The notes under the pieces were generated by a model. That model made no database searches. It was not told the DNA's origin and saw only the letters and a list, made by a program, of their open reading frames with translations. A DNA stretch of 64,000 nt. Source: Gemmatimonadota bacterium. Lineage in GTDB: Bacteria > Gemmatimonadota > Gemmatimonadetes > Gemmatimonadales > GWC2-71-9. Of the stretch, positions 1 to 51,266 are shown one piece after another (the stretch's first letter is position 1; each line of letters opens with the position of its first letter). The DNA lies in assembly GCA_041487875.1 (NCBI GenBank), contig JBGPOE010000003.1, forward strand, positions 12,398 through 76,397, written 5' to 3'. Both the position numbers and the translations under genes were made by a program.

Positions 1-651
1 GTCGATGTCCTCGGCCGACGCCACGCCCTGCTCGAGCATGCGCATCGCCTCGAGGCCCAGCACCACGCCCAGCCGGCTCGAGACGAATCCCGGCGAGTCG
101 CGTACCACGATGGGCTCCTTGCCAAGGAAGCGCGCGAACGCCAGAGCGCGTTCCGTGGCATCCCGGCCGATACCGGCGTGCGTCACCACCTCGACGAGCT
201 TCATCGCGTGCACCGGATTGAAGAAGTGCACGCCCACGCACCGCCCGGGGTCGTGCAACGCCCGGGCGATCTCCCCGATGGAGAGCGACGACGTGTTCGA
301 GGCGAGGAGCGCGCCCTTGGGCGCCCGCCGCTCCACTTCCGCGAGCAGGCGCTGCTTCACCTCGAGCTGTTCCACCACCGCCTCGACCACGACGTCGGCA
401 TCCGCCACGGCGGCGCCCAAGTCGGGCTCCGTGCGCACGCGGGCGCGCACCGCGGCGGCGAGTGCTTCGGTGAGCTTGCCGCGCTTCATGCCGCCCGCGA
501 GCAACCCGTCGATCTTGTTCCACGCGAGCTCCAATACAGCGGCGTTCGTGTCCGTCAGCGTGACGGCGCAGCCGGCGAGGGCGGCAACGTAGGCGATGCC
601 GTGCCCCATGGTCCCGGCGCCGACGACCGTGATGCGCGCCGTCGCGCTCAC
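1..651 (-). CDS. 3-hydroxyacyl-CoA (3-hydroxybutyryl-CoA) dehydrogenase, first 217 codons; 3' end lies beyond the window edge
   Basis: Not in the ORF track (open at window edge). My reverse-strand translation from GTG 651-649 reads VSATARITVVGAGTMGHGIAYVAALAGCAVTLTD...NTSSLSIGEIA...GVHFFNPVHAMKLVEV...LGLEAMRMLEQGVASAEDID: Rossmann GxGxxG plus HADH core motifs. GTGA overlap with the upstream stop (648-650). Confidence 0.85.
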   Translation of the reverse strand, partial: MSATARITVVGAGTMGHGIAYVAALAGCAVTLTDTNAAVLELAWNKIDGLLAGGMKRGKLTEALAAAVRARVRTEPDLGAAVADADVVVEAVVEQLEVKQRLLAEVERRAPKGALLASNTSSLSIGEIARALHDPGRCVGVHFFNPVHAMKLVEVVTHAGIGRDATERALAFARFLGKEPIVVRDSPGFVSSRLGVVLGLEAMRMLEQGVASAEDID

Positions 652-1331
652 GCCGCCCCGTCCACGATCCTGCGGGCCACGTCGGGACAGTTCGTGCAGA
701 TGCCGTCGACGCCCAGGTCGACCATGCGCTTGATGTCTTCGGCGTCGTTCGCCGTCCAGCCGAAGATCCGGCAGTTCGCGGTATGGATCGCATCGACCAG
801 GCCAGCGTCGATCAGCCCCTGGTCCTCCCACAGGGTCTGCGCCCCGGTGTCTTCCAGCTCCTCGAGGGGGCGGATGGGATAGGACGCGATGAGAATGCCG
901 CGCGGCATCTTGGGCCGCGCGAACCCGATGCGGCTGACGATGCGATGATCGAAGCTGTGCACGGCATACCGGCCCTTGGCGCCCTTATCGAGCACCGCGT
1001 AGAGCAGGCCATCGAACTGCTGCGGCAAGGACTTCACTTCGACGAACACCTGCAACGGCGCAGGGATCGCGGCCAGCGCCTCCTCGAGGGTGGGGATCGG
1101 CTCGCCGTTGGGGAGGTGCAGGGCGCCGATCTGCTTGGCCGTCGAGCGGGTGATGTGCGTGTGATTGACGGCTTCGTCGTGGTGCACGAACAGCATGCCG
1201 TCGCGCGTGGCGTGGATGTCGAGCTCCACGCCATCCGCGCCGCGGGGTTTGGCGGCCCGGAACGCGGCGAGAGAGTTTTCGCACTCGTACGCCGACGCGC
1301 CCCGATGGGCGATGACCAGGGGCCGCGTCAC
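648..1331 (-). CDS. glycerophosphodiester phosphodiesterase (GDPD) family protein
   Basis: ORF 648..1754 trimmed to GTG 1331-1329; the upstream part is Arg/Pro-rich read-through across the neighbour. VIAHRGASAYECENSLAAFRAA...GVELDIHATRDGMLFVHHDE fits the GDPD HRG...E.D...HD pattern. GTGA overlaps at both ends. Confidence 0.8.
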   Translation of the reverse strand: MTRPLVIAHRGASAYECENSLAAFRAAKPRGADGVELDIHATRDGMLFVHHDEAVNHTHITRSTAKQIGALHLPNGEPIPTLEEALAAIPAPLQVFVEVKSLPQQFDGLLYAVLDKGAKGRYAVHSFDHRIVSRIGFARPKMPRGILIASYPIRPLEELEDTGAQTLWEDQGLIDAGLVDAIHTANCRIFGWTANDAEDIKRMVDLGVDGICTNCPDVARRIVDGAA

Positions 1332-2449
1332 TGCAGCAGGCTGTCCGCCTTCTTCGCCTCGATCCAGTCCGGCTCCTTCTCGATGTCGTGCACCACCGCG
1401 ATGTCCTCGGGCCGGGGCAGCACCGATTCGAGGTACGCCGGATATTTCGCCGCGTCCAGCGGCTCGCCGTCCACGTCGAAGTGCTGGTGGGCGAACAGGC
1501 CGATGCGGCGGTTGAATTTCAGATCGGGGACCTTGAGCTGCCGCTCGCGCTCGGGGATGAACATGTTGAGCCGCTCGATCAGCTTCACGATCTCCTGGCG
1601 GTACAGGCCGCGGGCGTATTCGTTGAGCTTGGCCTTGTCGGGCTCGCTGATGTTCTCGCGCTCGTCGTAGCGGCCCTTCAAACCCCACACGTAGGCCCAG
1701 TGCGCCGAGGACGAGTTGTCGGTGCCGAACAGGTCGAAGGCCGTGGGAATCCACTTATTGAAGAAGCGCTGGATCACCTCGGGCGGCATCTTGCCCGCTT
1801 TGACGATGCGCAGCAATCCGTTGTTGCCGGTGCCCAGGTGGAACGACTCCTCCTTGAGCATCGGCCCCATCGAGCGCGACAGCGGGTCGAACGCCGACAC
1901 CGACAGCATCTTGAGCTGGAACTTGCCGTCGCGGTCGATGAACTGGGTGTAGGTGAAGAAGTCGAGCCAGTTGTCGACGATCTCGTTGAAGGAGCCCAGC
2001 AGCCGCTCGCCCTCGTCGGCGCGGCGCTCCAGCAGCTTCGCCGCCTCGCGCTTGCCTTCGTCGCCGAAATGCGAGCACAGCAGGTAGGACATCTGCCAGC
2101 CGTGCCGCATCTCTTCGGTCATCACGCGCTGCAACGACAGCAAGTCGTAGTCCGACGGCGCGTGATGCAGCAGGTTGCGCTGCTGCTCGACCGAGGCGAA
2201 CTCCGTGTCGCCCTGGTAGACGATGAGGTTCAACAGCGCGTCGCGGATGCGCTGATCGGGGATGTGCATCACGGTCGGCCACTTGCGCTGGCCCTTGTAA
2301 TGGCCGAACTCGATGTGCGGGACTTCGGGATCGCCGAACTTGGCGTCGAAGTTGAAGTCGCGCAGCGCACCCGACGGCAGACCGATCGAGTCCTGCCAGT
2401 AACGGAAGTAGTCGATCCAGTCGTCAAAGTTGCCCAGCTTGCGAACCAT
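1328..2449 (-). CDS. PaaA/BoxB-family di-iron (ferritin-like) acyl-CoA oxygenase-like protein, 373 aa
   Basis: ORF 1328..2569 trimmed to ATG 2449-2447 (MVRKLGNFDDW), 1 nt after the upstream stop. Two EExxH di-iron motifs (VMTEEMRHGW and MLKEESFHLG; KEESFH is the segment I recall from E. coli PaaA), plus QGDTEFASVEQQR and FIDRDGKFQL, which resemble BoxB as I remember it. Confidence 0.65.
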   Translation of the reverse strand: MVRKLGNFDDWIDYFRYWQDSIGLPSGALRDFNFDAKFGDPEVPHIEFGHYKGQRKWPTVMHIPDQRIRDALLNLIVYQGDTEFASVEQQRNLLHHAPSDYDLLSLQRVMTEEMRHGWQMSYLLCSHFGDEGKREAAKLLERRADEGERLLGSFNEIVDNWLDFFTYTQFIDRDGKFQLKMLSVSAFDPLSRSMGPMLKEESFHLGTGNNGLLRIVKAGKMPPEVIQRFFNKWIPTAFDLFGTDNSSSAHWAYVWGLKGRYDERENISEPDKAKLNEYARGLYRQEIVKLIERLNMFIPERERQLKVPDLKFNRRIGLFAHQHFDVDGEPLDAAKYPAYLESVLPRPEDIAVVHDIEKEPDWIEAKKADSLLQ

Positions 2450-2450
2450 G

Positions 2451-3206
2451 TCAGCGACTCCTTCGGGAAAGGGACTGCGCGATCCGTTCGCGCGCGTCCG
2501 CTGTAGCGAACAACTCGTGTTGCGTGGCGATCTCCCAATCGAGCATGGCCTCGAGCGAGGTCGCAGCACTCCGGTACAATCCTTCCTTGGCGCGCCGCAT
2601 GGCCAGCGGCGGCTGGGCAGCCCACGTCATAGCCAGGGCCCGCACTTCGACGGCGAGCCGGTCGGCCGGCACCACCTGGTCGAACACACCCAGCGCCAGG
2701 GCCTCGGCCGCGGGAATCATGCGCGCGCTCCACACCAGCTCCAGCGCTTTCGATGGGCCCACGAGGCGGGGCAAGAGCCAGCTGCCGCCCCAGTCGGGCG
2801 CGAGGCCGAGCTTCGCGAACACCTGCCCGATCTGCGCCTGGTCCGAGGCGATGCGGTAGTCGCAGGCGAGCGCGAGATTGGCGCCGCCGCCCGCCGCCGC
2901 GCCGTTCACCGCGGCCAGCACCGGCTGCGGCGCCCCACGCAACAGCAGCGCGATCGTCTTGCCCGCGGCTACCAGCGCATCACCCTCGGCGCCCAACACG
3001 GTGAGATCGGCGCCGGCGCAGAACGAGCGCCCCGCTCCCGTGAGCACGAGCACGCGCACCGCGGTCGAGCCCGCGAGCATCTTCAGCGCGTCGATCAAGT
3101 CGTCGCACAACGCGCGGTTCAGCGCGTTGAGCTTGTCGGGGCGGTTGAGCGTGACCGTGCCCACCCCGCCCGCGATGTCCACCATCACCGTATCGTAGGC
3201 GGCCAT
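2451..3206 (-). CDS. enoyl-CoA hydratase/isomerase (crotonase) family protein
   Basis: ORF 2451..4367 trimmed to ATG 3206-3204 ([29 protein letters not shown]). Crotonase motifs LTGAGRSFCAGADL and NGAAAGGGANLALACD. Start shares one nt with the thiolase stop. Confidence 0.85.
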   Translation of the reverse strand: MAAYDTVMVDIAGGVGTVTLNRPDKLNALNRALCDDLIDALKMLAGSTAVRVLVLTGAGRSFCAGADLTVLGAEGDALVAAGKTIALLLRGAPQPVLAAVNGAAAGGGANLALACDYRIASDQAQIGQVFAKLGLAPDWGGSWLLPRLVGPSKALELVWSARMIPAAEALALGVFDQVVPADRLAVEVRALAMTWAAQPPLAMRRAKEGLYRSAATSLEAMLDWEIATQHELFATADARERIAQSLSRRSR

Positions 3207-4387
3207 CAGACGCGCTCCACGATCATCGCGATGCCTTGGCCCACACCGATGCACATCGTCGCCAAGCCGTAGCGCGTTTTCGTGCGGTGCAGCGCATGCA
3301 CTAGCGTGGTCAGGATCTTCGCCCCGGTGCAGCCCAGCGGATGCCCCAGGGCGATGCCGCCGCCGTAAATGTTCGTCTTCTCGGGATCGAGCTTGAGCTC
3401 GCGCATGCAGGCGATCGCTTGCGCGGCGAACGCTTCGTTCAACTCGATCAGGTCGATCTGGTCGATGGTGAGGCCCGCCCGCTTGAGCGCTCTTTGGGTC
3501 GCGGGGATCGGACCCAGGCCCATAACACTCGGATCCACACCCGCCACCGCCGTCGCCACGACGCGCGCCAGCGGCTGCGCCCGCCCGCGACCGTCCTCGC
3601 CCGTCACCAGCAATGCCGCCGCCCCATCGTTGATGCCGCTCGAGCTGCCCGCGGTCACGGTGCCGTCGGCTCGGAAGGCGGGCTTCAACTTCGCGAGCTT
3701 CTCCGCCGACGCATCGAGGCGCGGGTATTCGTCTTTCGCGAACGTCGAGCCGTCGGGGAGCACCACGGGCACGAGCTCGTCGGTGAAGACGCAGTCCGTG
3801 AGCGCCGTTGCCGCACGCCGCTGGCTCTCGAGGGCGAACGCGTCCTGCTCGCCACGGCCGATCTTGTAGCGGGCGGCCACGACCTCGGCCGTCTCGCCCA
3901 TCGCGATCGTCCAGTCTTTCTTGAAACGGGGATTGGTAAAGCGCCAGCCCACTGTGGTGTCGGCCACCTCGGGCGTCTTCCGGCTCCACACTTCGCCGGA
4001 CTTGAGCGTCACGTAGGGGGCGCGGGTCATGTTCTCGACGCCCCCGGCGACGAAGACCGCGCCTTCGCCCGCCTTGATCGCCTGCGCGGCGCTCGCCACG
4101 GCCTGGAGTCCCGAGCCACACAGCCGGTTGACTGTTTGACCAGGCACTTCGACGGGCAGTCCTGCAAGCAGCAGCGCCATCCGCGCGACGTTGCGGTTGT
4201 CTTCGCCCGCCTGGTTGGTGCAGCCCAGGATCACGTCGTCGATCGTCCGAGGATCGACACCGCTGCGCTCCACGATCGCCTTGATCGGCACCGCAGCCAG
4301 ATCGTCGGCGCGAACGGACGCCAGACTGCCGCCGTGTTTGCCGACCGGGGTCCGGAGAGCGGCGCAAATGTACGCCTCGCGCGTCAC
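3206..4387 (-). CDS. acetyl-CoA C-acyltransferase (thiolase), PaaJ/PcaF-like
   Basis: ORF 3206..4387, 393 aa. [21 protein letters not shown] and [11 protein letters not shown] (active-site Cys region); C-terminal [20 protein letters not shown] thiolase signature. The N-terminal half resembles 3-oxoadipyl-CoA thiolases as I recall them. Confidence 0.9.
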
Positions 4388-4389
4388 GT

Positions 4390-4417
4390 TTCCCCTTTCC
4401 CCATTCCCGCTTCCCCC
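4390..4417 (-). repeat. four tandem heptamers GGGAAGC GGGAATG GGGAAAG GGGAAAC (minus-strand sense) filling the ALDH-thiolase intercistronic spacer; canonical G-quadruplex-type motif
   Basis: Plus strand shows TTCCCnn starting at 4390, 4397, 4404 and 4411, an exact 7-nt phase. mRNA sense: UGA AA GGGGGGG AAGC GGG AAU GGGG AAA GGGG AAAC GUG. Confidence 0.8.
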
Positions 4418-4421
4418 CCTT

Positions 4422-5855
4422 TCACAGCGCCACCCACACAGTCTTCGTTTCCAGATAGCTGTCGAGCGCGTCCCGCCCCAGGTCGCGCCCGTAGCCGCTC
4501 GCCTTGAATCCGCCGAACGGCGCGCCCGCGTCGTAGAAGTTGTACGCGTTGATCCACACGGTGCCCGCGCGGATGGCGCGGGCCGCGCGATGCGCCTTCT
4601 GGATATCCTTGGTCCAGATGCCCGCGGCGAGGCCGTAGATGGTGCGGTTGGCGAGTGCCACGCCGTGCTCGAAGTCGTCGAAGGAGAGCACCGCCAGGAC
4701 CGGCCCGAAGATCTCTTCGCGCGCGATGGTCATCTCGGGCACGACTTTGTCGAACACGGTCGCCTCGACGAAGTAGCCCTTACCGTTCGCCTGCGCGGCC
4801 TTGCCGCCCGCGACCAGCGCGGCGCCTTCGTCCACGCCCTTCTTGATGTAGCCCAGGACCGTATCCTGCTGCTTCTTGGAGACGAGCGCGCCGAGTCGCG
4901 TGTTCTTGTCCAGCGGATCGCCCACCGTGAGCTTCTTGGCGCTCGCGGCGAGCTGCTCCACCACCTGATCGTGCACGCTCTTCTCGACCAGCAGGCGCGA
5001 GCCCGCGGCGCACACTTCGCCCTTGCCGTAGAAGATGCCGGTTTGCGCGCCGCGCACGGCCGCCTTCAAGTCGGCGTCCGCGAAGATGATGTTGGGGCTC
5101 TTGCCGCCGAGCTCCAACGTGAGGCGCTTGTTGGTGTCGGCCGCCATCCTCATGATCTGCCGGCCGACCTCCGTGGAACCCGTGAACGAGATCTTGTCCA
5201 CGTCGGGATGGCGCACCAGCGCCGCGCCCGCGGTCGAGCCGCCGCCCGCCACCACGTTGAAGGCACCAGGCGGGAAGCCCGCCTCGAGCGCCAGCTCGGC
5301 GAAGAGCAGGGCGGTGAGCGGCGTCTCCGAGGCGGGCTTCAGCACCACCGTGCATCCCGCCGCCAGCGCGGGGGCGAACTTCCAGCTGGCGATGTTGAGC
5401 GGGAAATTCCACGGTACGATGGCGCCCACCACGCCCACCGGCTCGCGCAAGGTATAGACGAAGAACGGGCCGTCGACCGGCAGCGTATCGCCCGTGATCT
5501 TGTCGGCCCAGCCCGCGTAGTAGCGCAGCGTGTTGACCGTGAGCGTCAGCTCGATCTTCGACTCGAACAGCGTCTTGCCGTTGTGCGCCGTCTCGAGCCG
5601 CGCGAATTCGTCGAGCCGCGCCTCGAGCAGATCGCCGGCCTTGGACAAGAGCCGGCCGCGTTGGCGCGCGGAGAGGCCGCGCCAGGCGTCCGAATCGAAA
5701 CAGGCCCGCGCCGCGGCGACGGCAGTGTCCACGTCGGCCACATCGCCCAGGGCGACCTGGGCGATCACTTCCTCCGTCGCCGGGTTGACCACGGGGAAGC
5801 GTTTGCCCGAGGCCGCGGGCCGCCATTCGTTATTGATGAAAAGGTCGGTCCTCAC
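4422..5855 (-). CDS. NAD(P)-dependent aldehyde dehydrogenase
   Basis: ORF 4422..6077 trimmed to GTG 5855-5853 ([20 protein letters not shown]), which forms a GTGA overlap with the upstream stop. ALDH motifs [29 protein letters not shown] (catalytic Cys region) and EEIFGPV. Confidence 0.9.
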
Positions 5856-6661
5856 CGCCCTTTGAACTCCGCCACGCGCTTCTCGTTGTAGGCGGCGATG
5901 CCTTCCTTGGCGTCTTCGCTCTGGAACAGCTGCTGTTGCAGCTCGCGCTCGATCGCCAGCGCCGACTCGAACGGCACCTCGGCGCCCGACTGCACGGCGC
6001 GCTTGATCAGGCCGACCGCCTTCGACGCCTTGGCGGGCGGGCAGAACTGCCGGGCGTACAGCAGCACCTGCTCCCAATAGCCCGGCGCCGGGAAGATTTC
6101 GTTGACCATGCCCAGCTCTTTGGCACGGTCGAATGAGAACGTCTCACCCTTCACCATCATTTCGATCGCGAGCGACTTGCCCACGAGCCGCGCCAGACGC
6201 TGCGTGCCGCCGGTGCCCGGCAGCACACCCAGGTTCACTTCCGGCAGCCCGATCTTGCCGGCGTTTTCCTTGGCGAGGCGCATGTCGCACGCCATCGCGA
6301 TCTCGAGCCCGCCGCCCACCGTGTGCCCGTTGAGCGCGGCGATGGTGAGTTTGGGCGTCTGCTCCAGCCGGCTCAGCGTTTCGTTGGCGTGCAGGCAGAA
6401 GAAGTACTTGTAACGGGGTGTGATGCGGTTCAGGTAGGCGATGTTCGCGCCGGCGGAGAAGAACTTCTCGCCATGGCCGCGGAGCACGATCACGTGCGCG
6501 CCGTCGTCGAAACGCGCCTTCAAGATCGCCTCGTCGAGCTGGTGCATCATCTCGTAGGTGTACGTGTTGGCGGGGGGATCGTTCAGCTCGATGATCGCCA
6601 GCCCGTCCTCCACGCGGTAATCGACGAGGGTCTTCACCTGAGGTTCCGTCATGGTCGCCAT
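5852..6661 (-). CDS. enoyl-CoA hydratase/isomerase (crotonase) family protein
   Basis: ORF 5852..6661, 269 aa. Crotonase motifs RGHGEKFFSAGANI, NGHTVGGGLEIAMACD and GLPEVNLGVLPGTGGTQRL. Confidence 0.85.
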   Translation of the reverse strand: MATMTEPQVKTLVDYRVEDGLAIIELNDPPANTYTYEMMHQLDEAILKARFDDGAHVIVLRGHGEKFFSAGANIAYLNRITPRYKYFFCLHANETLSRLEQTPKLTIAALNGHTVGGGLEIAMACDMRLAKENAGKIGLPEVNLGVLPGTGGTQRLARLVGKSLAIEMMVKGETFSFDRAKELGMVNEIFPAPGYWEQVLLYARQFCPPAKASKAVGLIKRAVQSGAEVPFESALAIERELQQQLFQSEDAKEGIAAYNEKRVAEFKGR

Positions 6662-6667
6662 GCGTGC

Positions 6668-7267
6668 CTAGCCTCCGTGTACCGTGGAACGGGCCTCGGC
6701 GAACCCGCCGAGGAAGATGCGCGCGATCAAGTCCGCGAGCTGCTGAGGATCGATTTCGCCCGCGGGGTCGTACCAGTTGTAAATCCAGTTCATCATGCCG
6801 AAGAGCGCGTAGGCGGCAGCACTGCGATCCACCGCGGTCTCTTCGGGCGATGCTTCCTTGAGCAGCTTCTCGAGCAGGTCCACGTAGCGCCGCTTGATCG
6901 CATTCACGCGGCGTTGCCCCTCGCCCGTGAGCGAGTTGGCCTCGTGCGACAGGACCTTCATCTCGGCCATGTGCGCCGCGAAGAACGCCACGTGGTGGCG
7001 GATGAAGGCCTTGAGACGCTCGGTGGGATCTGACTCGGGCGCGAGCGCGGCCTTGGCGCCCTCCCAGACGCGGGTGAAGCAGCGCTCCTGGATGAGATGG
7101 AGCAGCTCCTCCTTGCCCTTCACGTAGTAGTAGATGCCCGCGAGCGACATGCCGCTCGCCGCGGCCAGATCGCGCATGCTGGTGGCATGGTAGCTCCGCT
7201 CCGCGAACACGCGGGCGGCGGCGGCCAGCAAGGCATCGAGGCGTTGGTCGTAGGGGCGCACGGGCAC
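6668..7267 (-). CDS. TetR/AcrR-family transcriptional regulator (start unresolved; longest ORF reaches 7336)
   Basis: ORF 6668..7336. HTH region SYHATSMRDLAAASGMSLAGIYYYVKGKEELL. I prefer GTG 7267-7265 (VPVRPYDQRLDALL, 199 aa) because the longer form would translate through an AT-richer palindrome. Stop lies 6 nt before the next gene's start. Confidence 0.8.
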   Translation of the reverse strand: MPVRPYDQRLDALLAAAARVFAERSYHATSMRDLAAASGMSLAGIYYYVKGKEELLHLIQERCFTRVWEGAKAALAPESDPTERLKAFIRHHVAFFAAHMAEMKVLSHEANSLTGEGQRRVNAIKRRYVDLLEKLLKEASPEETAVDRSAAAYALFGMMNWIYNWYDPAGEIDPQQLADLIARIFLGGFAEARSTVHGG

Positions 7268-7274
7268 CGGTTTT

Positions 7275-7284
7275 CGAACGTTCG
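7275..7284. promoter_or_regulatory. candidate TetR operator: perfect 10-bp palindrome CGAACGTTCG
   Basis: Sits inside TTTTCGAACGTTCGTTCGGATTC, the least GC-rich stretch of the TetR/sigma divergent region, 8 nt upstream of the preferred TetR start. Confidence 0.3.
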
Positions 7285-7344
7285 TTCGGATTCTAGCCCG
7301 CCCCGCCACCGAAAGCAACCACGCACTCCGCACCACGCACCTCT

Positions 7345-7371
7345 TAACTTTTCACCGATCCTGCACGTCAA
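7345..7371 (+). promoter_or_regulatory. candidate ECF-type promoter (TAACTT-N15-CGTCAA) upstream of the sigma gene
   Basis: AAC (7346-7348), then 17 nt, then CGTC (7366-7369), followed by GGAG and ATG 7384. Resembles the generic ECF -35 AAC / -10 CGT pattern. Confidence 0.25.
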
Positions 7372-7383
7372 CCAACGGAGCCC

Positions 7384-7935
7384 ATGGCCCAACCTCAGCC
7401 CGTCGCCGCGCCGGCGTCCGATGCGGCCCTGATTGCCGCGTGGCAGCGCGGCGACGAGCAGGCGGCGGCCGAATTGGTGCGGCGCCACGCTCGCGCGCTG
7501 GCGCGTTTTCTGGCGGGGGCGGGGGCGCCCGACGCGGACTTGGACGACCTGGTGCAGGACACGTTGATCCGGGCGTTCCGCTCGATCGAGCGGTTTCGCG
7601 GGGACTGCCAGTTCCGCACGTGGTTGTTGACCATCGGCGGAAACGTCCTGAAGGATGCCGGGCGGCGCGCGGCACGGGGTAAGGTGATTCCGCTCGACGA
7701 AGCGCTGGCGACGAGCGACGGCGATCCCCACGCCGAGGCGGAGGCGAGCGAAGCGGCGGAGCAGCTGGCCCAAGAGCTGGGCCGGTTGCCGCGGATGCAG
7801 CGGGAGGTGTTCCTGCTGCGGGCCCAGCAGGGCCTCGAGTACACGGAAATCGCGGCGGCGCTGGGGACGAGCGAGGGAGCGGCGCGGGTGCATTATCATC
7901 ACGCGCAGAAACGATTGAAGGAGAGTCTCACGTGA
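7384..7935 (+). CDS. ECF-subfamily RNA polymerase sigma-70 factor
   Basis: ORF 7384..7935. Region 2 (DLDDLVQDTLIRAFRSIERFRGDCQFRTWLLTIGGN) and region 4 HTH (LEYTEIAAALGTSEGAARVHYHHAQKRL). Confidence 0.9.
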   Translation: MAQPQPVAAPASDAALIAAWQRGDEQAAAELVRRHARALARFLAGAGAPDADLDDLVQDTLIRAFRSIERFRGDCQFRTWLLTIGGNVLKDAGRRAARGKVIPLDEALATSDGDPHAEAEASEAAEQLAQELGRLPRMQREVFLLRAQQGLEYTEIAAALGTSEGAARVHYHHAQKRLKESLT

Positions 7936-8354
7936 AACCGCACGAGATCGAGGATCCCAAGCTGCAGGAGCTGGCGCGCCGGTTGGGCGTACGGGCCGCG
8001 GAGCGTCTGGACGTGGAGCGTACAGCGGCGGCGGTCGTTGCCGAGCTGCGCCGCTCTGTACGGCAGCGCACCTGGCTTGCCTGGACCGAGATCGCGTGGG
8101 TGCGTGCCGCGGCGATGGTCGTGTTGTTCCTCGGCACGGGGATCCTGTTGCAGCCCCGGGCCACACCCGTGCGCGGTGCCTGGGACGATCCGCCGGTCGG
8201 GTCGGTGCAGGACTTGTCGGCCGATCAACTGACCCGGGTATTGGACGAGCTGGATCAGCCGGTGGACGTCACGGTGCCGGCGCCGGAAGACGCGGGTCTC
8301 GAGGACTTGTCTGAACCGCAGCTCCGCGCGTTGCTCAAATCGTTGGAGGGATGA
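7932..8354 (+). CDS. single-pass membrane protein, candidate anti-sigma factor (non-ZAS)
   Basis: ORF 7932..8354 with GTGA overlap to the sigma gene. One hydrophobic helix (IAWVRAAAMVVLFLGTGILL). The position is typical of anti-sigma factors, but there is no HxxxCxxC zinc motif. Confidence 0.45.
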   Translation: MKPHEIEDPKLQELARRLGVRAAERLDVERTAAAVVAELRRSVRQRTWLAWTEIAWVRAAAMVVLFLGTGILLQPRATPVRGAWDDPPVGSVQDLSADQLTRVLDELDQPVDVTVPAPEDAGLEDLSEPQLRALLKSLEG

Positions 8355-8911
8355 CCGTGAAGCGACTGGGGGTGGTACTCGTGCTCTGCGTGGCGCCGGG
8401 ACTCGTGGCGCAACGGCCTGACAGTGGGATGCAGGACGATTCCGCGCGCATCGAGAGCCTGCGCCAGGAGATTCAGCAGCGCTACAACGCGCGGGCACAT
8501 GAGGTATTGGGCCTTTCGCCCGCCCAGGCGGCGAAGTTCGACTCGACCCAGGAGCGCGCGTGGGGCCAGCGCCGCGACCTCATGTTGCAGCGCCGGCGGA
8601 TCAACCTGGGGTTGCAGGGGCAGATGCGTCCGGGCGTGGCGGCGCAGGCCGACAGCGTGAGCCGCTTGCTCGACGCCCGGCAGCGCGTGAACGAGTCGCT
8701 GGTGCGCGTGGACGATCAGGAAGACCGGGAGATGGCGGGGTACCTGACCCCCGTACAGCGGGCGCAGTACCAGACGTTCCGCGGCAGGTTCCGGGAGCGC
8801 ATGGGCGAAGCGATCCGCCACCAGCAGGGCACGGGCGGCGGGCTGCGCGGCCGGCCGGGGCCCGGTCGGCGTGGTGGAGGCGGGGTGCCGCCGCGGCGTC
8901 GCAGGCCGTAA
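8351..8911 (+). CDS. periplasmic LTXXQ-motif protein (Spy/CpxP/ZraP-like)
   Basis: ORF 8351..8911 with ATGA overlap. Signal peptide MTVKRLGVVLVLCVAPGLVAQ; two LTXXQ-type motifs (LSPAQAAKF, LTPVQRAQY); Gly/Arg-rich tail. Confidence 0.7.
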   Translation: MTVKRLGVVLVLCVAPGLVAQRPDSGMQDDSARIESLRQEIQQRYNARAHEVLGLSPAQAAKFDSTQERAWGQRRDLMLQRRRINLGLQGQMRPGVAAQADSVSRLLDARQRVNESLVRVDDQEDREMAGYLTPVQRAQYQTFRGRFRERMGEAIRHQQGTGGGLRGRPGPGRRGGGGVPPRRRRP

Positions 8912-8932
8912 AGGCGACGGAATGCTAGATTT

Positions 8933-8960
8933 GCAACCTTCGCGGGCACTCTCCGTAGCG
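8933..8960 (+). promoter_or_regulatory. candidate second ECF-type promoter (AACCTT-N13-CGTAG)
   Basis: AAC (8935-8937), then 16 nt, then CGTA (8954-8957), then GAGGGG and ATG 8968. Same architecture as 7345-7371. Confidence 0.2.
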
Positions 8961-8967
8961 AGGGGTC

Positions 8968-9279
8968 ATGTTCGGCATTCCAGAGTGGGCCATCGGCGTC
9001 GTCGCGATCGTGGCGGGGGTCGGCGTCGTGCAGATCCTGGTCGGGCTGGGGTACAAAGTCCTGGGCTTGCCCCGGCGCGACACCCGGAGCAGGGCCCGGG
9101 CAGTCCTGGGCATGACGCTGCCCGGCGAATCCGGCGAGCGTAGCGACTCGGGTGAGCACGCCGCGGCGCTGCAGGACGTGCAGCGTCGCATCGCGGAGCT
9201 GGAGGAGCGCGTCGATTTCGCTGAGCGTCTGCTGGCGCAACACAAGGACGCCGCGCAGCTCAACCCGCCGGGCAAGTAA
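8968..9279 (+). CDS. small single-pass membrane protein with C-terminal coiled-coil motif (PspB-like architecture), paralogue A
   Basis: ORF 8968..9279, 103 aa, with GAGGGG upstream. N-terminal helix WAIGVVAIVAGVGVVQILVGLGY; C-terminal [27 protein letters not shown]. Confidence 0.6.
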   Translation: MFGIPEWAIGVVAIVAGVGVVQILVGLGYKVLGLPRRDTRSRARAVLGMTLPGESGERSDSGEHAAALQDVQRRIAELEERVDFAERLLAQHKDAAQLNPPGK

Positions 9280-9282
9280 AGC

Positions 9283-9561
9283 GTGCCACCGGACCTCTTC
9301 TACACGCTCTTCCTCATCACGGTGATAGGTGGCTTCACCGCCATCGTGACGTGGCCGTTGATGCGCGCATTCGCCGACCGCATCCGCGGGCACGGCGCCG
9401 CAGCCGGCACCGAGCAGCTGCAGGCCCAGCAAGACGCGCTGGCGCGCGACCTGGAGCAGACCCGCCACGACGTGGCGGAGCTGCAGGAGCGGCTGGACTT
9501 CGCCGAGCGGCTGCTGGCGAAGCAGCAGGACCCGGCGCGCATCGCGCCGCCGCCGCGTTAG
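9283..9561 (+). CDS. small single-pass membrane protein with C-terminal coiled-coil motif (PspB-like architecture), paralogue B
   Basis: ORF 9283..9561, 92 aa; GTG start 3 nt after the paralogue A stop. N-terminal helix [22 protein letters not shown]; C-terminal [23 protein letters not shown]. Confidence 0.6.
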
Positions 9562-10528: not shown

Positions 10529-10912
10529 ATGCGCACTCTTCATGATGTGCCAGGACCAGCATTCCACTGGGCTCGCCTCAAGGTCGATGCAGCGTCGCAG
10601 CTGCGCCGGGGAGCCTGGTACCGCATCATAAAGCTCACGTCCGTGGAAGCAACGCTGAACGTGAAGGGGACGCCTGTCGCCGTACCCCGGGCCCAGCTCC
10701 AGCTGTCTTCCGAGCCCGTTTTGCGCTGGAGCGTCGTGCCAGCCCCCCGAGGGGCACCTCGTTTCCCGTCCGCGTGGGGCCCACGCTACGCGGTCTGCCC
10801 CAACTGCCGCGACCGCGCCCGGTTGCTCGGCCAGCCCACTACGATGCGGTGCCACCGCTGCAACGGGCTGTTCGCGGTGGCGTGGGACGAATCCTACCTC
10901 GTGCAGGCGTAG
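10529..10912 (+). CDS. hypothetical protein with C-terminal CxxC...CxxC zinc ribbon, tandem paralogue 1
   Basis: ORF 10529..10912, 127 aa. WARLKVDAASQLRRGAWYRII...RWSVVPAP...YAVCPNCRDRARLLGQPTTMRCHRCNGLFAVAWDESY. Confidence 0.6.
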   Translation: MRTLHDVPGPAFHWARLKVDAASQLRRGAWYRIIKLTSVEATLNVKGTPVAVPRAQLQLSSEPVLRWSVVPAPRGAPRFPSAWGPRYAVCPNCRDRARLLGQPTTMRCHRCNGLFAVAWDESYLVQA

Positions 10913-11036
10913 GTCTTGACGGAAGCCGTATGGCACCCGAAGACGTGGGAAGCGAGACGTGTGTCGGCCGTCACAGTCTCTACGGTCGCATGTCGACACA
11001 TTACGGGCCCCATCTCAAGCGGCGCGAGAGCACACG

Positions 11037-11390
11037 ATGATGCAGTGGGCTCGGCTCCAGGCCAATGTCGATTGCCACTTGCGGCGCGGCGGCTGGTACC
11101 GCGTCCTTCGGATGGCATCCGTCGAAGCCGTCCTCGACGTGAGCACGGGCCCGGTGCCCGTCCTGGTCCCCTTCCTCGAAATCACGCAGACGCCGCCGCG
11201 GCGCTGGACCGTCGTCCCGCGCCCGGCCAACGCCGTCAACATGCCGCCGAGCTGGGGCAGCGAGTACGCCGTGTGCCCGAGTTGTCGCCACCGCGAGCGA
11301 CTGCCCGGGCATCCTAAGCAGCTGCGCTGCGAGCGGTGCCAGAGCGATTTTGCCGTCGCGTGGGACGAGCACTACCAGCCCGCGTTCTGA
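11037..11390 (+). CDS. hypothetical protein with C-terminal CxxC...CxxC zinc ribbon, tandem paralogue 2
   Basis: ORF 10959..11390 trimmed to ATG 11037 by alignment with paralogue 1. MMQWARLQANVDCHLRRGGWYRVL...RWTVVPRP...YAVCPSCRHRERLPGHPKQLRCERCQSDFAVAWDEHY. Confidence 0.6.
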   Translation: MMQWARLQANVDCHLRRGGWYRVLRMASVEAVLDVSTGPVPVLVPFLEITQTPPRRWTVVPRPANAVNMPPSWGSEYAVCPSCRHRERLPGHPKQLRCERCQSDFAVAWDEHYQPAF

Positions 11391-14730: not shown

Positions 14731-14837
14731 GGGCTCCTAGTGTATGCCTCGTGGGCCGACTGGCGCAACCCGTCGGGCCCCATGTAAACTGCACTTGATA
14801 CGTTACTTACCCTGACCTCGGATTGGCGTTCACCTCC

Positions 14838-15989
14838 ATGACCAGCATGGCCCCACCGTTGCCGGAAGCCCTCGCGCCCAAAGGGCTCGAAGGCGTCGTC
14901 GCCAACGAGTCCTCCATCTGCTACGTGTTCGGCGGCGAAGGCCGCCTGATCTACCGCGGCTACGACATCGGCGACTTGGCCGAGCACTCGACCTTCGAGG
15001 AAACGGCCTACCTGCTGCTCAAGGGCGACCTGCCGACCAAGGACGCGCTCAAAGCCTTCACCGCCGAGATCAAAGCGGCGCAAAAGCTCGACCGCGTGAT
15101 TCTGCGCATCATCAAGGACGCCCCGCGCGACGCCAAGCCGATGAACGTGCTGCGCACGGCGGTGAGCGCGGCCGTCTTTGTGGACCCCGACAAGAATGAC
15201 AACACTCCCGCCGCCGAATACCGCAAGGCGGTGCGACTGATCGCGCAGCTGCCGACCATGGTGGGGACGTTCCACCGGCTGCGTACGGGCCAGAAGCCGC
15301 TCGCCCCACGGCGCGGCCTGTCGCTCGCGGCGAACTGCCTGTACTTGCTCACGGGGGCGATCCCGGATGCGGACGTCGAGCGCGCGTTCGACGTGGCGCT
15401 GATCCTCCACGCCGACCACGAATTGAACGCCTCCACGTTCGCGGCACGGGTGATCGCCGCGACGCTGGCCGACGTGCACGGCGCGGTCACCGGGGCCATC
15501 GCCGCGCTCGCGGGCCCGCTGCACGGCGGCGCCAACGCCGAAGTGATGAAGATGCTGCTCGAGATCAAGACGCCCGACCAGGCCGAGGCGTGGATCCGCA
15601 ATGCGCTCGCGCAGAAGAAGAAGATCATGGGCTTCGGCCATCGCGTGTATCGCACCGCCGACCCGCGTGCCGCTCAGCTGCGCCGCGTCGCCGAGGAGCT
15701 GGGGCGCAAGGCCGGCCAGCCGCAGTGGTTCGCGATCCAGCGCGTGATCGAAGACGTGATGCGGCGCGAGAAGGGCCTGTACTGCAACGTCGACTTCTAC
15801 TCCGCCTCGACGTACTACGCGATGGGGATTCCGCTCGATCTGTTCACACCGATCTTCGCCGTCAGCCGCATCAGCGGCTGGTGCTCCCATATCCTGGAGC
15901 AGCACGCCGACAACCGGCTGATCCGGCCGCGCGCGGAATACGTGGGTCCGATGAATCGCACGTGGACCCCGCTGCGAAAGCGGGGCTGA
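14838..15989 (+). CDS. gltA: citrate synthase (short, ~380-aa type); alternative TTG start 14823
   Basis: ORF 14823..15989. [26 protein letters not shown] and [14 protein letters not shown] citrate synthase signatures. Confidence 0.9.
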
Positions 15990-15991
15990 CC

Positions 15992-17212
15992 GTGGCCGGG
16001 GCGGCGGTGGGGGCGAAGATCGATTGGCGCGACGGGCGCTGGGTGGTTCCCGACGCGCCCATCATTCCGTTCATCGAAGGCGACGGCACCGGGGCCGACA
16101 TCTGGCGCGCCGCGCAGCGCGTGTTCGACGCGGCGGTGGCCAAGACGTCCGGCGGCAAGCGCCGCATCGTGTGGCGCGAGGTCCTGGCCGGCGAGAAGTC
16201 CTTCAAGGCCAACGGGAGCTGGCTCCCCGACGAGACGCTCGCCACCATCCGCGAGCACCGCGTGGCCATCAAGGGCCCGCTCACGACGCCCGTGGGCGGC
16301 GGCATTCGCTCGCTCAACGTGGCGCTCCGTCAGGTGCTCGACCTCTACGCCTGCGTACGGCCGGTGCGTTGGTTCAAGGGCGTGCCCAGCCCGGTCAAAG
16401 AGCCCGCCAAGCTCGACGTGGTCATCTTCCGCGAAAACATCGAAGACGTGTACGCCGGGATCGAATACGAAGCGGGCAGCGACCAGGCGAACCGGCTGCG
16501 CCAGTTTCTCGTCGCCGAGCTCGGCGCCAAGATCCGCGAGCAGAGCGCGCTGGGCATCAAGCCCATGTCGAAGTTCGGCTCGCAGCGGCTGGTAGTGAAG
16601 GCGATCCAATACGCGCTCGACAACGGCAAGCCGTCGGTGACGCTCGTCCACAAGGGCAACATCATGAAGTTCACCGAGGGCGCCTTCCGCGACTGGGGCT
16701 ACGAGGTCGCGAAACAACAATTCGGTGCGCAAACGATCACCGAAGCGGATGCGGGAAGCGGGAAGCGAGAAGCGGGAAGGGTGCTGATCAAGGACCGCAT
16801 CGCCGACGCGATGTTCCAGCAAGTCTTGTTGCGCCCCGACGAATACTCGGTGCTCGCGACGCCGAATCTGAACGGCGACTATCTGTCCGACGCCTGCGCC
16901 GCTCAAGTGGGTGGCCTGGGCATGGCGCCAGGCGCCAACATCGGCGACGGCTTCGCCGTGTTCGAAGCGACGCACGGCACGGCACCCAAGTACGCGGGTC
17001 AAAACAAGATCAACCCCGGCAGCGTCATTCTCTCGGGCGCCATGCTGTTCGACGAGATCGGCTGGAAGGACGCCGGCACGGCGATCCGGCGCGGCATCGA
17101 GGGCGCTCTCGCCGCCAAACGGGTCACCTACGACCTCGCCCGCCAGATGCCCGGAGCCACCGAGGTCTCGACCTCTGCCTTCGGCGACGCCATTATCGAG
17201 CACCTCGCATGA
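15992..17212 (+). CDS. icd: NADP-dependent isocitrate dehydrogenase (prokaryotic homodimeric type)
   Basis: ORF 15590..17212 trimmed to in-frame GTG 15992 (or 16007), just after the gltA stop. [16 protein letters not shown] and [27 protein letters not shown] align with E. coli Icd as I recall it. Confidence 0.9.
16753..16780 (+). repeat. four tandem heptamers GGGAAGC GGGAAGC GAGAAGC GGGAAGG inside icd
   Basis: Units start at 16753, 16760, 16767 and 16774. They encode part of [14 protein letters not shown] in a loop region that is variable relative to E. coli Icd. Confidence 0.75.
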
Positions 17213-38777: not shown

Positions 38778-41176
<2,399 letters not shown>

Positions 41177-41177
<1 letters not shown>

Positions 41178-43090: not shown

Positions 43091-43093
43091 GGC

Positions 43094-43771: not shown

Positions 43772-43916
43772 CGCGGCTCCCAGAGAGCGGGTGAGAACGG
43801 ACAGATGATACCTGCGACGAGGCATCGGGAGCAAGGGAACGGCCGCGGAGCAGCCGGTGTTACTTTGGTGGACTCTCGCGTGGCGGACACAGTGCTGTCG
43901 GGATCGGAGTGACACG

Positions 43917-51233: not shown

Positions 51234-51266
51234 TTTCGGCGTCTAGTGAATTTTTTCACGAGGCCG

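Follow-up and report, generated by a model that had tools for sequence, protein, structure and literature searches.

A short BoxB-type di-iron oxygenase in a Gemmatimonadales operon points to a possible variant of aerobic benzoyl-CoA degradation

The window analysed here (the whole 64-kb stretch of DNA) comes from a soil Gemmatimonadales bacterium and carries at its first positions a tightly packed, TetR-controlled operon. Eight minus-strand genes encode, in order, a TetR-family regulator (6668..7336, longest open reading frame 222 aa; Pfam TetR_N 2.8e-14, TetR_C_24 1.4e-30), the 269-aa crotonase ECH1 (5852..6661; ECH_1 1.2e-52), a 477-aa NAD(P)-dependent aldehyde dehydrogenase, ALDH (4422..5855; Aldedh 2.5e-185), a 393-aa PcaF/PaaJ-like thiolase (3206..4387; Thiolase_N/C), the 251-aa crotonase ECH2 (2451..3206; ECH_1 6.9e-60), a 373-aa short BoxB-type di-iron oxygenase, sBoxB (1328..2449; PaaA_PaaC, PF05138, 1e-13), a 227-aa GDPD-family protein (648..1331; GDPD 6.4e-33) and the 3-hydroxyacyl-CoA dehydrogenase HADH, which runs off the window (1..651; 3HCDH_N 2.6e-59). 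Successive genes meet at a 6-nt gap (TetR/ECH1), a 4-nt overlap (ECH1/ALDH, GTGA), a 34-nt gap (ALDH/thiolase), a 1-nt overlap (thiolase/ECH2, TGATG), a 1-nt gap (ECH2/sBoxB) and two further 4-nt overlaps (sBoxB/GDPD and GDPD/HADH). Gene coordinates and Pfam matches agree with the gene order proposed in the first-pass annotation, and its account of the junctions (4-nt or 1-nt overlaps or gaps of at most 6 nt, apart from one 34-nt spacer) was exact. No minus-strand terminator-like site was found in positions 1-7700, so none is internal to the operon. The eight-gene order is repeated in at least 27 independent Gemmatimonadota MAG contigs and is, therefore, not a chance arrangement.

The count of eight genes holds for the window, to which a near-identical JGI contig (L001) reaching approximately 9.7 kb past window position 1 adds a ninth co-directional gene, encoding a 269-aa Amidohydro_2 protein and located 44 nt after HADH, just outside the window. 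The same contig gives the full length of HADH as 286 aa, of which the window holds the N-terminal 217. The first-pass annotation had remarked on the absence of a reductase, a dihydrolase, a CoA ligase and paaBCDE and had proposed looking for such genes past the edge; boxA, boxC, paaBCDE and CoA ligase genes were found neither in the approximately 9.7 kb of L001 nor in the other 57 kb of the window, where the parts examined outside the operon are housekeeping genes. Within the Gemmatimonadota operon itself there is neither a CoA ligase nor a reductase nor a BoxC homologue, and boxA and boxC were never adjacent to sBoxB in the loci examined.

The di-iron protein belongs with BoxB, as a short relative in a clade of its own, and is not PaaA-like. 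It scores 51 bits against PF05138 (cut-off 28.5), 229 bits against the BoxB model TIGR03225 (cut-off 499) and 44 bits against the PaaA model (cut-off 280), so its earlier description as PaaA/BoxB-type stands for BoxB and falls for PaaA. In the PDB its sequence matches BoxB 3PER (E 2e-54, residues 45-356 covered), and an AF2 model (pLDDT 80.5) has its best fold match in BoxB (TM 0.81) as opposed to PaaA (TM 0.46-0.50). Both EExxH motifs reported at first pass were confirmed, at residues 112-116 (EEMRH) and 200-204 (EESFH), and its placing in size between PaaA and BoxB was also correct, the 373 aa of sBoxB comparing with 471-481 aa in BoxB chains and 311 aa in PaaA. Relative to BoxB it lacks approximately 100 residues, comprising the N-terminal region, the C-terminal tail and two internal segments, one of 18-20 residues after the second EExxH helix and the other within the C-terminal half.

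BoxB, known from Azoarcus evansii and Burkholderia (PDB 3PER, 3PM5 and 3Q1G), is the oxygenase component of benzoyl-CoA 2,3-epoxidase in their BoxABC(D) pathway; sBoxB shares 46-51% identity with most canonical representatives across a core of approximately residues 45-217. The six BoxB iron ligands (E120, E150, H153, D211, E240 and H243; PMC5489048) are conserved as E83, E113, H116, D172, E201 and H204. They are invariant across a 53-sequence alignment, which has 125 invariant columns, and are lost in one distant representative, P0193. Five of the seven benzoyl-pocket residues are also kept, namely the Gln that hydrogen-bonds the thioester (Q116, BoxB numbering) and T119, S123, F193 and F203 (PMC5489048). 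The other two, beside the iron site, differ throughout the short clade (Tyr replaces F206, and Ile or Val replaces T210; Y167 and I171 in sBoxB) and, therefore, the substrate or regiochemistry of sBoxB may differ from that of BoxB. The sequences show that the family is strongly selected, with cluster representatives sharing 72-93% identity in the Gemmatimonadota set and 80-100% in a Binatia-type set that also takes in members from other phyla.

That the oxygenase is a single subunit had been listed as a departure from known pathways. The observation is correct, but BoxB itself is a monomer that requires no partner of the PaaC kind, and a single subunit is its normal state (PMC4498308); what sets the operon apart is the absence of BoxA and BoxC. 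In place of these, the partners of sBoxB are small crotonases and Amidohydro_2, or, in other phyla, a NuoEF-like pair or genes resembling those of 4-hydroxybenzoyl-CoA reductase (HBCR). Compared with PaaABCDE, the phenylacetyl-CoA 1,2-epoxidase, and the PaaG-Z-F-H-J steps, the operon shares the Pfam family of the oxygenase, a PaaG-like isomerase, a hydratase, an ALDH, an HADH and a 3-oxoadipyl-CoA-type thiolase; it differs in having no PaaB, PaaC, PaaD or PaaE and no PaaZ-type MaoC-ALDH fusion, and none of its lower-pathway proteins reaches its Paa equivalog cut-off.

ECH1 keeps both catalytic glutamates (GGGLE...GLPE), matches PaaF (172 bits) and PaaG (126 bits) in NCBIfam, both under cut-off, and in the PDB has 2PPY as its best match (PaaF 141 bits, PaaG 86 bits). 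It adjoins the short BoxB in many non-Gemmatimonadota loci and is at least as conserved (61-73% identity across phyla versus 57-64% for sBoxB in the same loci); we regard it as a candidate partner of the oxygenase, acting as a hydratase or in ring hydrolysis. It has the crotonase fold and, of all the neighbours of the oxygenase, is the one most tightly co-conserved, which parallels the partnership of BoxB with BoxC (PMC4498308), which is reportedly required to relieve product inhibition of BoxB (PMC4498308). Unlike BoxC, however, ECH1 is a single-domain protein whose closest solved relatives are ordinary hydratases, and BoxC is absent from its best 60 PDB matches.

ECH2 lacks both catalytic glutamates and carries an Asp in APDWGG; in PDB alignments Asn and Phe occupy the hydratase Glu positions. 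PaaG (TIGR02280) is its second-best model (179 bits, cut-off 345), and its PDB matches include PaaG (144.5 bits) and PaaF (117 bits), from which we class it as a putative isomerase (PaaG-like) type crotonase. The thiolase scores 544 bits against PRK09050 (cut-off 605) and 535 bits against TIGR02430 (cut-off 597) and passes the general acetyl-CoA C-acyltransferase model (458 versus 241 bits); by these scores it is closest to the 3-oxoadipyl-CoA thiolases PcaF/PaaJ. The nearest NCBIfam models of ALDH are phenylacetaldehyde dehydrogenase StyD (582 bits, cut-off 850) and betaine-aldehyde dehydrogenase (548 bits, cut-off 669). Because ECH1, ECH2, ALDH and HADH reach no equivalog cut-off among the NCBIfam models, their step assignments rest on analogy. 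The GDPD gene is translationally coupled on both sides and its product matches the GDPDs 2PZ0 and 1V8E. Its motifs HR, EN, ExD, HD and ExK are invariant or nearly so in 41 syntenic orthologues, whose overall identity is only 36-85%; the active site is predicted to be intact, and the protein has no place in the chemistry proposed below.

Translation of the TetR gene probably starts at the in-frame GTG at 7267 (199 aa) rather than at 7336 (222 aa). The regulator's closest NCBIfam models, SACE_7040 and Bacillus FadR, are both under cut-off. Eight nt upstream of this GTG, at 7275..7284, is a perfect 10-bp palindrome, CGAACGTTCG, with no other perfect copy in the window. We searched 40 related loci for it, allowing at most one mismatch, in the 260 nt that precede the region encoding the TetR helix-turn-helix. 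The palindrome or its 14-bp variant CGAACGATCGTTCG is near TetR in 32 of them, from several phyla, most often approximately 50-60 nt upstream of that region. A TetR gene with an upstream palindrome accompanies sBoxB across phyla, and we regard CGAACGTTCG as a candidate TetR operator.

The sBoxB family, which is uncharacterised, occurs in at least 590 species-level genomes; its carriers are uncultured soil bacteria, numbering in the hundreds, and all 80 loci listed are from MAGs. In one locus (L075) sBoxB adjoins a benzoate-CoA ligase family gene (645 bits, cut-off 375), and in five non-Gemmatimonadota loci its neighbours are 4-hydroxybenzoyl-CoA reductase-like alpha, beta and gamma subunits (alpha 983 bits, cut-off 995). 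CoA-transferase subunits are also found beside it in other phyla. A thioredoxin-like 2Fe-2S ferredoxin and a NuoF-like FMN/[4Fe-4S] flavoprotein lie next to sBoxB in six loci of the neighbour scan and again, for a Binatia-type cluster considered separately (P0321, with 81% identity to the protein of L053), in all six contig places found. It is plausible, from this gene context, that the pair replaces BoxA in other phyla; the sole NuoF-like match in our window is NuoF of complex I, 39% identical to the reductase-type NuoF. In many genomes the neighbours are unrelated, e.g., FabH, MutY and PtsP.

Taken with the gene set and its order, sequence homology, the fold, and the conservation of ligands and synteny, these neighbours lead us to favor, with moderate confidence, the view that the operon encodes a variant of the aerobic benzoyl-CoA (Box) CoA-thioester ('hybrid') ring-cleavage route that does without BoxA and BoxC. 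The variant CoA-thioester epoxidase or hydroxylase pathway put forward in the first-pass annotation thereby gains support, and where that annotation left the thioester unnamed, context in other phyla suggests benzoyl-CoA or a close aryl-CoA. We infer the substrate, the order and assignment of the steps, the electron donor and the regulator ligand as follows. With O2, and with two electrons supplied by a ferredoxin or reductase encoded at an unlinked site, sBoxB would epoxidise or hydroxylate the aromatic ring of its substrate, benzoyl-CoA or a close aryl-CoA. Isomerisation and hydrolytic opening of the ring product would fall to the small crotonases, perhaps aided by Amidohydro_2, with hydratase-type ECH1, the most conserved partner, as the best candidate for the BoxC role, and ALDH would oxidise the resulting aldehyde. 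ECH2, ECH1, HADH and the PcaF/PaaJ-like thiolase would then convert a dicarboxylyl-CoA via 3-oxoadipyl-CoA-type intermediates to acetyl-CoA and succinyl-CoA. TetR would repress the operon at CGAACGTTCG, probably sensing an acyl-CoA. Counting against this reading are the score far under the BoxB cut-off, the missing BoxB residues, the two changed pocket positions, the absence of a ligase, a reductase and a BoxC homologue in the Gemmatimonadota operon given the reported need for BoxC, step assignments made by analogy, a GDPD that the chemistry does not use, and the unrelated neighbours of sBoxB in many genomes. Together, the operon and the spread of the family point to an as yet unstudied form of aerobic degradation of aromatic acids.

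It is possible, if rather unlikely, that the operon instead acts on another CoA thioester, which could be an aryl-CoA carrying substituents or a heterocycle, an acyl-CoA that is alicyclic or unsaturated, or the side chain of a phenylpropanoid, with sBoxB a hydroxylase or epoxidase of specificity unlike that of BoxB, the ECH, HADH and thiolase performing ordinary beta-oxidation, and GDPD and ALDH feeding in lipid- or glycerophosphodiester-derived compounds. The clade-wide pocket changes, a score well under the BoxB cut-off, a TetR nearest FadR-type fatty-acid regulators, an ALDH nearest phenylacetaldehyde and betaine-aldehyde dehydrogenases, a GDPD with a seemingly intact active site coupled to sBoxB, and the lack of a ligase to fix the substrate would all fit. 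Yet the thioester-binding Gln and most benzoyl-orienting residues are kept, benzoate-CoA ligase family and 4-hydroxybenzoyl-CoA reductase-like neighbours occur in other phyla, the thiolase and ECH2 resemble 3-oxoadipyl-CoA thiolases and PaaG, and GDPD is confined to Gemmatimonadota operons while sBoxB, ECH1 and TetR co-occur across phyla.

We consider it improbable that the cluster is biosynthetic or detoxifying, yielding a metabolite derived from a ring-oxidised CoA ester, rather than serving growth on aromatic acids. Paa intermediates feed tropone formation, which offers a model, and in many genomes sBoxB stands alone or with only the reductase pair and no lower pathway; the Gemmatimonadota sBoxB, however, is embedded in a full degradative set (ALDH, HADH and thiolase) under a repressor, with no PKS, NRPS or tailoring enzymes nearby. 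Still harder to credit is a decayed, non-catalytic BoxB remnant with a structural, PaaC-like role in a generic beta-oxidation operon. Its shortness, the lack of a dedicated reductase near the Gemmatimonadota sBoxB and the ligand loss in P0193 would suit a remnant, but the ligand invariance in the alignment, the identity among Gemmatimonadota representatives, the confident fold prediction and the ferredoxin-flavoprotein pair dedicated to sBoxB in other phyla argue for an enzyme. Finally, since the window stops within HADH, part of the operon is missing from it, and a conventional Box or Paa pathway might have been cut by the edge, with boxA/boxC or paaBCDE just outside. This is essentially refuted: past the edge L001 continues with Amidohydro_2 and then only with unrelated genes, which encode M16 peptidases, amidohydrolases, ribosomal proteins and a secreted protein of 249 aa, the operon boundaries are repeated in dozens of contigs, and sBoxB sits in a short clade apart from canonical BoxB.

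sBoxB is not the only truncated PF05138 member. SSO1313 (PDB 4MUD), an archaeal 'ring oxidation complex / phenylacetic acid degradation-related protein', matches it with E 1.4e-16 and TM 0.79 (normalised to SSO1313), but is a much more distant protein of 235 aa that comprises the helical core only.

The short BoxB family described here is an abundant, uncharacterised lineage of di-iron proteins whose usual partners have been replaced. CoA-dependent epoxide ('hybrid') routes are the known way of breaking aromatic rings at low or fluctuating oxygen, and two oxygenase systems of this kind have been characterised, BoxAB with BoxC and PaaABCDE. The short BoxB proteins, represented in the window by the 373-aa sBoxB (1328-2449, minus strand), add a third, compact lineage that is plentiful in soil metagenomes (clusters at 90% identity run into the thousands and species-level genomes to at least 590) and, as far as seen here, restricted to uncultured bacteria. 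We favor a scenario in which sBoxB is the oxygenase of a variant aerobic benzoyl-CoA (Box) pathway that operates independently of BoxA and BoxC; this is the best-supported reading of our data, and we hold its mechanism with moderate confidence.

sBoxB is encoded in an operon of eight co-directional minus-strand genes, identified by ORF listing and frame-by-frame translation and assigned to families by Pfam with strong E-values throughout. In transcriptional order these are a TetR regulator (6668-7336), the 269-aa crotonase ECH1 (5852-6661), an aldehyde dehydrogenase (ALDH, 4422-5855), a thiolase (3206-4387), the crotonase ECH2 (2451-3206), sBoxB, a GDPD protein (648-1331) and a 3-hydroxyacyl-CoA dehydrogenase (HADH, 1-651) that crosses the window edge. 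From one gene to the next there is first a gap of 6 nt, then an overlap of 4 nt, a gap of 34 nt, an overlap and a gap of 1 nt each, and finally two overlaps of 4 nt. Gene order and junctions are exactly those reported in the first-pass annotation, and the operon it described is a real feature. A scan of the coding strand over 1-7700 detected no terminator-like site; candidate internal terminators and promoters were dismissed, the scan matches lying on the plus strand only and occurring at chance level.

As the operon runs off the window, it had been envisaged that boxA and boxC, or paaBCDE, might lie just past the edge. A JGI metagenome contig (L001) that encodes an identical 373-aa sBoxB, and whose called genes agree with those of the window in order and length, reaches about 9.7 kb further than window position 1; it contains no exact copy of the window's first 2000 bases. 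On this contig HADH is 286 aa at full length and is followed, after a 44-nt gap, by a ninth co-directional gene encoding a 269-aa Amidohydro_2 protein with an N-terminal HxH motif. Beyond it are genes for a secreted protein of 249 aa, for M16 peptidases and amidohydrolases (two of each) and for ribosomal proteins L27 and L21, and nowhere in the 9.7 kb is there a boxA, boxC, paaBCDE or CoA ligase gene. Judged by domain content and gene size, boxA and boxC are also missing from those window genes that could be identified by annotation or translation and from the annotated operon neighbours in 80 related loci. Thus, whereas BoxB has linked genes for a reductase (boxA) and a dihydrolase (boxC), sBoxB has neither among the genes examined; and whereas PaaA operates within PaaABCDE, sBoxB is found without PaaB, PaaC, PaaD or PaaE in the window or in L001. 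The sole NuoF-like match in the window, NuoF of complex I (54794-55984, 39% identity), was not considered specific and was rejected as a dedicated reductase.

The first-pass annotation had called the oxygenase PaaA/BoxB-type, and only the second half of that label is borne out. sBoxB scores 229 bits, in three separate stretches, against the BoxB model TIGR03225 (below the equivalog cut-off of 499.1) and 43.6 bits against the PaaA model TIGR02156 (cut-off 280), while exceeding the gathering threshold of the PaaA_PaaC ferritin-like family PF05138 (51.4 versus 28.5 bits). Among solved structures, Azoarcus evansii BoxB matches residues 45-356 with an E-value of 2e-54 and PaaA reaches only about 1e-5. 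An AlphaFold (AF2) model built from 53 homologues (pLDDT 80.5, pTM 0.82) gave the same picture: BoxB chains fill the top 11 places in a Foldseek search (E 1e-18, TM 0.80-0.82), as against TM 0.46-0.50 for PaaA. Going by sequence and predicted fold, then, sBoxB is BoxB-type rather than PaaA-type. In a neighbour-joining tree of cluster representatives the short proteins (about 366-385 aa) stand apart from the canonical BoxB clade, whose members are about 465-480 aa long. Relative to canonical BoxB, the 373-aa sBoxB shows four deletions: the N-terminal region, 18-20 residues that follow the second EExxH helix, a segment of the C-terminal half and the C-terminal tail are all missing.

BoxB carries out the NADPH- and O2-dependent 2,3-epoxidation of benzoyl-CoA and requires BoxA in catalytic amounts only. 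Given this requirement, and because BoxB is itself monomeric (PMC4498308), the single oxygenase subunit noted in the first-pass annotation is correctly observed but is not in itself a departure from Box. The missing BoxC is more notable, as BoxC has been reported both to co-purify with BoxB and to lift the product inhibition of that enzyme (PMC4498308).

The active site bears both on this assignment and on the main rival to our reading, which is that the operon acts on a different CoA-ester substrate. Residue roles were taken from PDB 3PM5 (PMC5489048; see also PMC4498308) and mapped through the alignment with BoxB from the PDB. All six di-iron ligands of A. evansii BoxB (Glu120, Glu150, His153, Asp211, Glu240 and His243; PMC5489048) are kept in sBoxB, as E83, E113, H116, D172, E201 and H204, so that a loss of metal ligands, which would have counted against an oxygenase, is not seen; the six are invariant in 53 family members and kept in nearly all full-length representatives. 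Seven second-shell residues orient benzoyl-CoA in BoxB (Gln116, Thr119, Ser123, Phe193, Phe203, Phe206 and Thr210; PMC5489048), and sBoxB retains five of them: the Gln that hydrogen-bonds the thioester, T119, S123, F193 and F203. The other two are changed, F206 to Tyr167 and T210 to Ile171. Nearly all canonical BoxB representatives have Phe and Thr at these positions and most members of the short clade have Tyr and Ile/Val, and this clade-wide pocket signature keeps the different-substrate rival in play, as do the sub-threshold model scores, the lack of a ligase in the operon and the presence of a GDPD for which our scheme has no explanation. We nonetheless prefer the benzoyl-CoA variant. What the data show directly is homology, ligand conservation, fold, synteny and neighbours; the substrate and the assignment of steps are predictions. 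Under this variant, we infer that sBoxB would oxygenate benzoyl-CoA, or a close aryl-CoA, on the ring; the small crotonases, perhaps together with Amidohydro_2, would isomerise and open the product; ALDH would oxidise the aldehyde arising from ring opening; and ECH2, ECH1, HADH and the thiolase would complete a 3-oxoadipyl-CoA-type sequence.

The remaining enzymes of the operon were compared with characterised families. ECH1 keeps both crotonase catalytic glutamates and is hydratase-like (141 bits to PaaF versus 86 bits to PaaG among PDB entries); the 60 solved structures that match it best do not include BoxC. In PDB alignments ECH2 has Asn and Phe in place of the two hydratase glutamates and keeps the Asp of an isomerase-type loop (APDWGG); it is nearer PaaG than PaaF and scores 179 bits on the PaaG model TIGR02280 (cut-off 345). 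The thiolase scores best on the 3-oxoadipyl-CoA thiolase models, at 535 bits on TIGR02430 and 544 on PRK09050, below the respective cut-offs of 597 and 605, and exceeds the threshold of the general thiolase model. ALDH is a generic class 1/2-type enzyme, with the phenylacetaldehyde and betaine-aldehyde dehydrogenases as its nearest models. GDPD matches PF03009 with 115 bits (threshold 23.6), and its HR, ExD, HD and ExK motifs are invariant or nearly so in 41 syntenic orthologues despite overall identities of 36-85%; it is predicted to be a working phosphodiesterase. It is translationally coupled to sBoxB and HADH throughout Gemmatimonadota and evolves faster than its neighbours. In the sBoxB loci of other phyla that we examined there is no GDPD, except in two (L022 and L031) where sBoxB is Gemmatimonadota-like. 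One protein (P0031, 565 aa), found on a single ENA contig, joins sBoxB residues 1-352 to GDPD residues 12-227 by BLAST, with loss of the HR motif; we did not accept this fusion as functional evidence since it is most likely a deletion or an assembly artefact.

The neighbourhood of sBoxB is stable within Gemmatimonadota and variable outside it. The order TetR-ECH1-ALDH-thiolase-ECH2-sBoxB-GDPD-HADH-Amidohydro_2, in many cases with a third crotonase gene before Amidohydro_2, is found on at least 27 Gemmatimonadota contigs over which sBoxB identity falls from 97% to 67%. Near-complete Gemmatimonadales assemblies with the operon include CAVZRK010000006.1 and CAVZBP010000003.1. The third crotonase gene is absent from the window's own lineage (L003-L018); where present it usually lies between HADH and Amidohydro_2 (L020, L021, L024, L025, L027, L031-L033, L035-L039, L041, L042, L044 and L047), and in L023 and L028 it follows HADH on contigs that end before Amidohydro_2. 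The recurring core in other phyla consists of TetR, ECH1 and sBoxB. Across phyla, in the same loci, ECH1 is 61-73% identical, sBoxB 57-64%, ECH2 41-44%, HADH 33-46% and TetR 37-45%, so that ECH1 is conserved at least as well as sBoxB and far better than ECH2, HADH or TetR. A search with ECH1 as query was uninformative on its association with sBoxB; the 120 matches listed were all at least 85% identical, with named sources all in Gemmatimonadales.

Outside Gemmatimonadota sBoxB is accompanied by several other kinds of gene. A Binatia chromosome carries ECH1, sBoxB and a benzoate-CoA ligase family protein in succession (645 bits, cut-off 375), and CoA-transferase A and B subunits lie near sBoxB in two loci. 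Five loci, of Terriglobia and other Acidobacteriota (L049, L051, L061, L063 and L076), have 4-hydroxybenzoyl-CoA reductase-like gamma, alpha and beta genes about 1-2 kb downstream of sBoxB. The alpha subunit scores 983 bits (cut-off 995) and beta carries an extra Cys-rich insertion; in two of the five (L061 and L076) an Amidohydro_2 gene comes after beta. 4-Hydroxybenzoyl-CoA reductase is known from anaerobes, and its occurrence in one gene string with an O2-dependent oxygenase, which sets an enzyme of anaerobes beside an aerobic step, was unexpected. In six further loci (L050, L053, L066, L068, L079 and L082) the genes directly downstream of sBoxB encode a thioredoxin-like 2Fe-2S ferredoxin of 107 aa (PF01257) and a NuoF-like protein of 419 aa with Complex1_51K, SLBB and NADH_4Fe-4S domains, and the same trio occurs in six of six contig places found for a separate Binatia-type cluster (P0321). 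The adjacency is strict in Binatia-type genomes (the six loci just named and L083-L088). This pair would make up a complete path for electrons from NAD(P)H to iron and could plausibly stand in for BoxA; it is a candidate for a new reductase module of a di-iron oxygenase. Genes for UbiD, a radical-SAM protein and PtsP were seen upstream in these loci.

In other genomes sBoxB sits amid genes that look unrelated by sequence or Pfam; many neighbours in non-Gemmatimonadota loci are of this kind, among them LipA, NuoA, a glutamine amidotransferase, a Macro-domain protein, FabH, MutY and PtsP. In Terriglobia and related Acidobacteriota the acyl-CoA operon also contains a MUG-like G/U mismatch DNA glycosylase homologue (170-176 aa; 101 bits on PRK10201, cut-off 144) with no obvious role there; it lies upstream of sBoxB in L046, L058, L061, L073 and L077 and between ECH1 and ECH2 in all of these except L061.

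With regard to distribution, a word-index search with sBoxB scored 7025 clusters at E <= 0.001, canonical BoxB included, and the best 120 of these are 72-93% identical to the window protein. Seeding with a Binatia homologue listed at least another 120 clusters at 80-100% identity, with members from Udaeobacter, Eisenbacteria and Deltaproteobacteria. When one genome per species was scanned, at least 590 carried the family; the best 80 are all MAGs and come from Gemmatimonadota, Acidobacteriota, Binatia, Rokubacteria, Zixibacteria, Chloroflexia, Armatimonadetes, Planctomycetota, Proteobacteria, Bacteroidota and Eisenbacteria. All named cluster members are MAGs, and the search turned up no cultured carrier. 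Annotation pipelines disagree on these proteins, JGI naming them benzoyl-CoA 2,3-dioxygenase or epoxidase subunit B and NCBI 'Phenylacetic acid catabolic protein'. Our literature search returned nothing specific on short BoxB, or on a Box pathway lacking BoxA and BoxC, in Gemmatimonadota, Acidobacteria or Binatia.

The cautious earlier proposal of a variant epoxidase or hydroxylase pathway for a CoA thioester is thus supported and can be sharpened to an abundant short BoxB lineage with replaced partners. If sBoxB is a functional aryl-CoA epoxidase, surveys that demand boxA/boxC or the BoxB equivalog cut-off would underestimate the extent of aerobic benzoyl-CoA catabolism in soil; it would become apparent how small a part of BoxB, and which substitute partners, are enough for ring epoxidation and opening; and 4-hydroxybenzoyl-CoA reductase-like enzymes would be linked, in a testable way, to an oxygen-dependent pathway. 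A bolder reading, which we think rather unlikely, is that the short BoxB clade constitutes a widespread aerobic system for aryl-CoA ring cleavage, minimal and modular in make-up, among uncultured phyla of soil (Gemmatimonadota, Acidobacteriota, Binatia and others). On this speculative account: (i) sBoxB would work without BoxA, drawing on interchangeable electron donors that include a dedicated NuoE/NuoF-like ferredoxin-flavoprotein pair; (ii) a plain 269-aa crotonase, possibly aided by Amidohydro_2, would replace the large two-domain BoxC; (iii) carbon might exit as CO2 through ALDH and a decarboxylase, not as formate; and (iv) the GDPD-fold enzyme of Gemmatimonadota would have been recruited to a new, non-lipid role in ring-cleavage chemistry.

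A probable control element was found at the head of the operon. The perfect palindrome CGAACGTTCG occurs as a single perfect copy in the window, at 7275-7284, 8 nt upstream of an in-frame GTG. Of 40 loci, 32 have this sequence or its 14-bp form CGAACGATCGTTCG (at most one mismatch) in the 260 nt that precede the TetR helix-turn-helix region, most often at a distance of about 50-60 nt. The loci that bear it (L003-L080) span phyla, including Terriglobia and Bacteroidota. The conserved palindrome is probably the operator of TetR, whose effector, like the electron donor of sBoxB, is a matter of prediction. The position of the palindrome implies that TetR is a 199-aa protein starting at 7267, so that the annotation, with its start at 7336, makes the protein about 23 codons too long.

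Elsewhere in the window, the genes identified by annotation or from their translations are of a housekeeping kind, namely an ECF sigma cluster, citrate synthase, isocitrate dehydrogenase, leucyl aminopeptidase, DnaB, RadA, GAPDH, PGK, MoaADE, malate dehydrogenase, succinate dehydrogenase, peptidases and the complex I operon. Those flanking the operon region at 14823-18696, 39478-44026 and 51246-63545 (citrate synthase, isocitrate dehydrogenase, leucyl aminopeptidase, malate and succinate dehydrogenase and the complex I nuo operon) place this catabolic operon in a core chromosomal region with no obvious island; GC content over the first 16 kb is flat, at 0.63-0.71. Divergent from TetR, at 7384-9561 on the plus strand, a 183-aa ECF sigma factor is followed by four small proteins (140, 186, 103 and 92 aa) with no Pfam match, the last two apparently membrane proteins, and this cluster is probably a sigma/anti-sigma unit. 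Further along the plus strand, at 10529-10912 and 10959-11390, are tandem genes for paralogous small proteins of 127 and 143 aa, which have no Pfam family in the JGI gene calls and have in common a C-terminal CxxC...CxxC zinc-ribbon-like motif (AVCPxCRxR...RCxRC...FAVAWDE).
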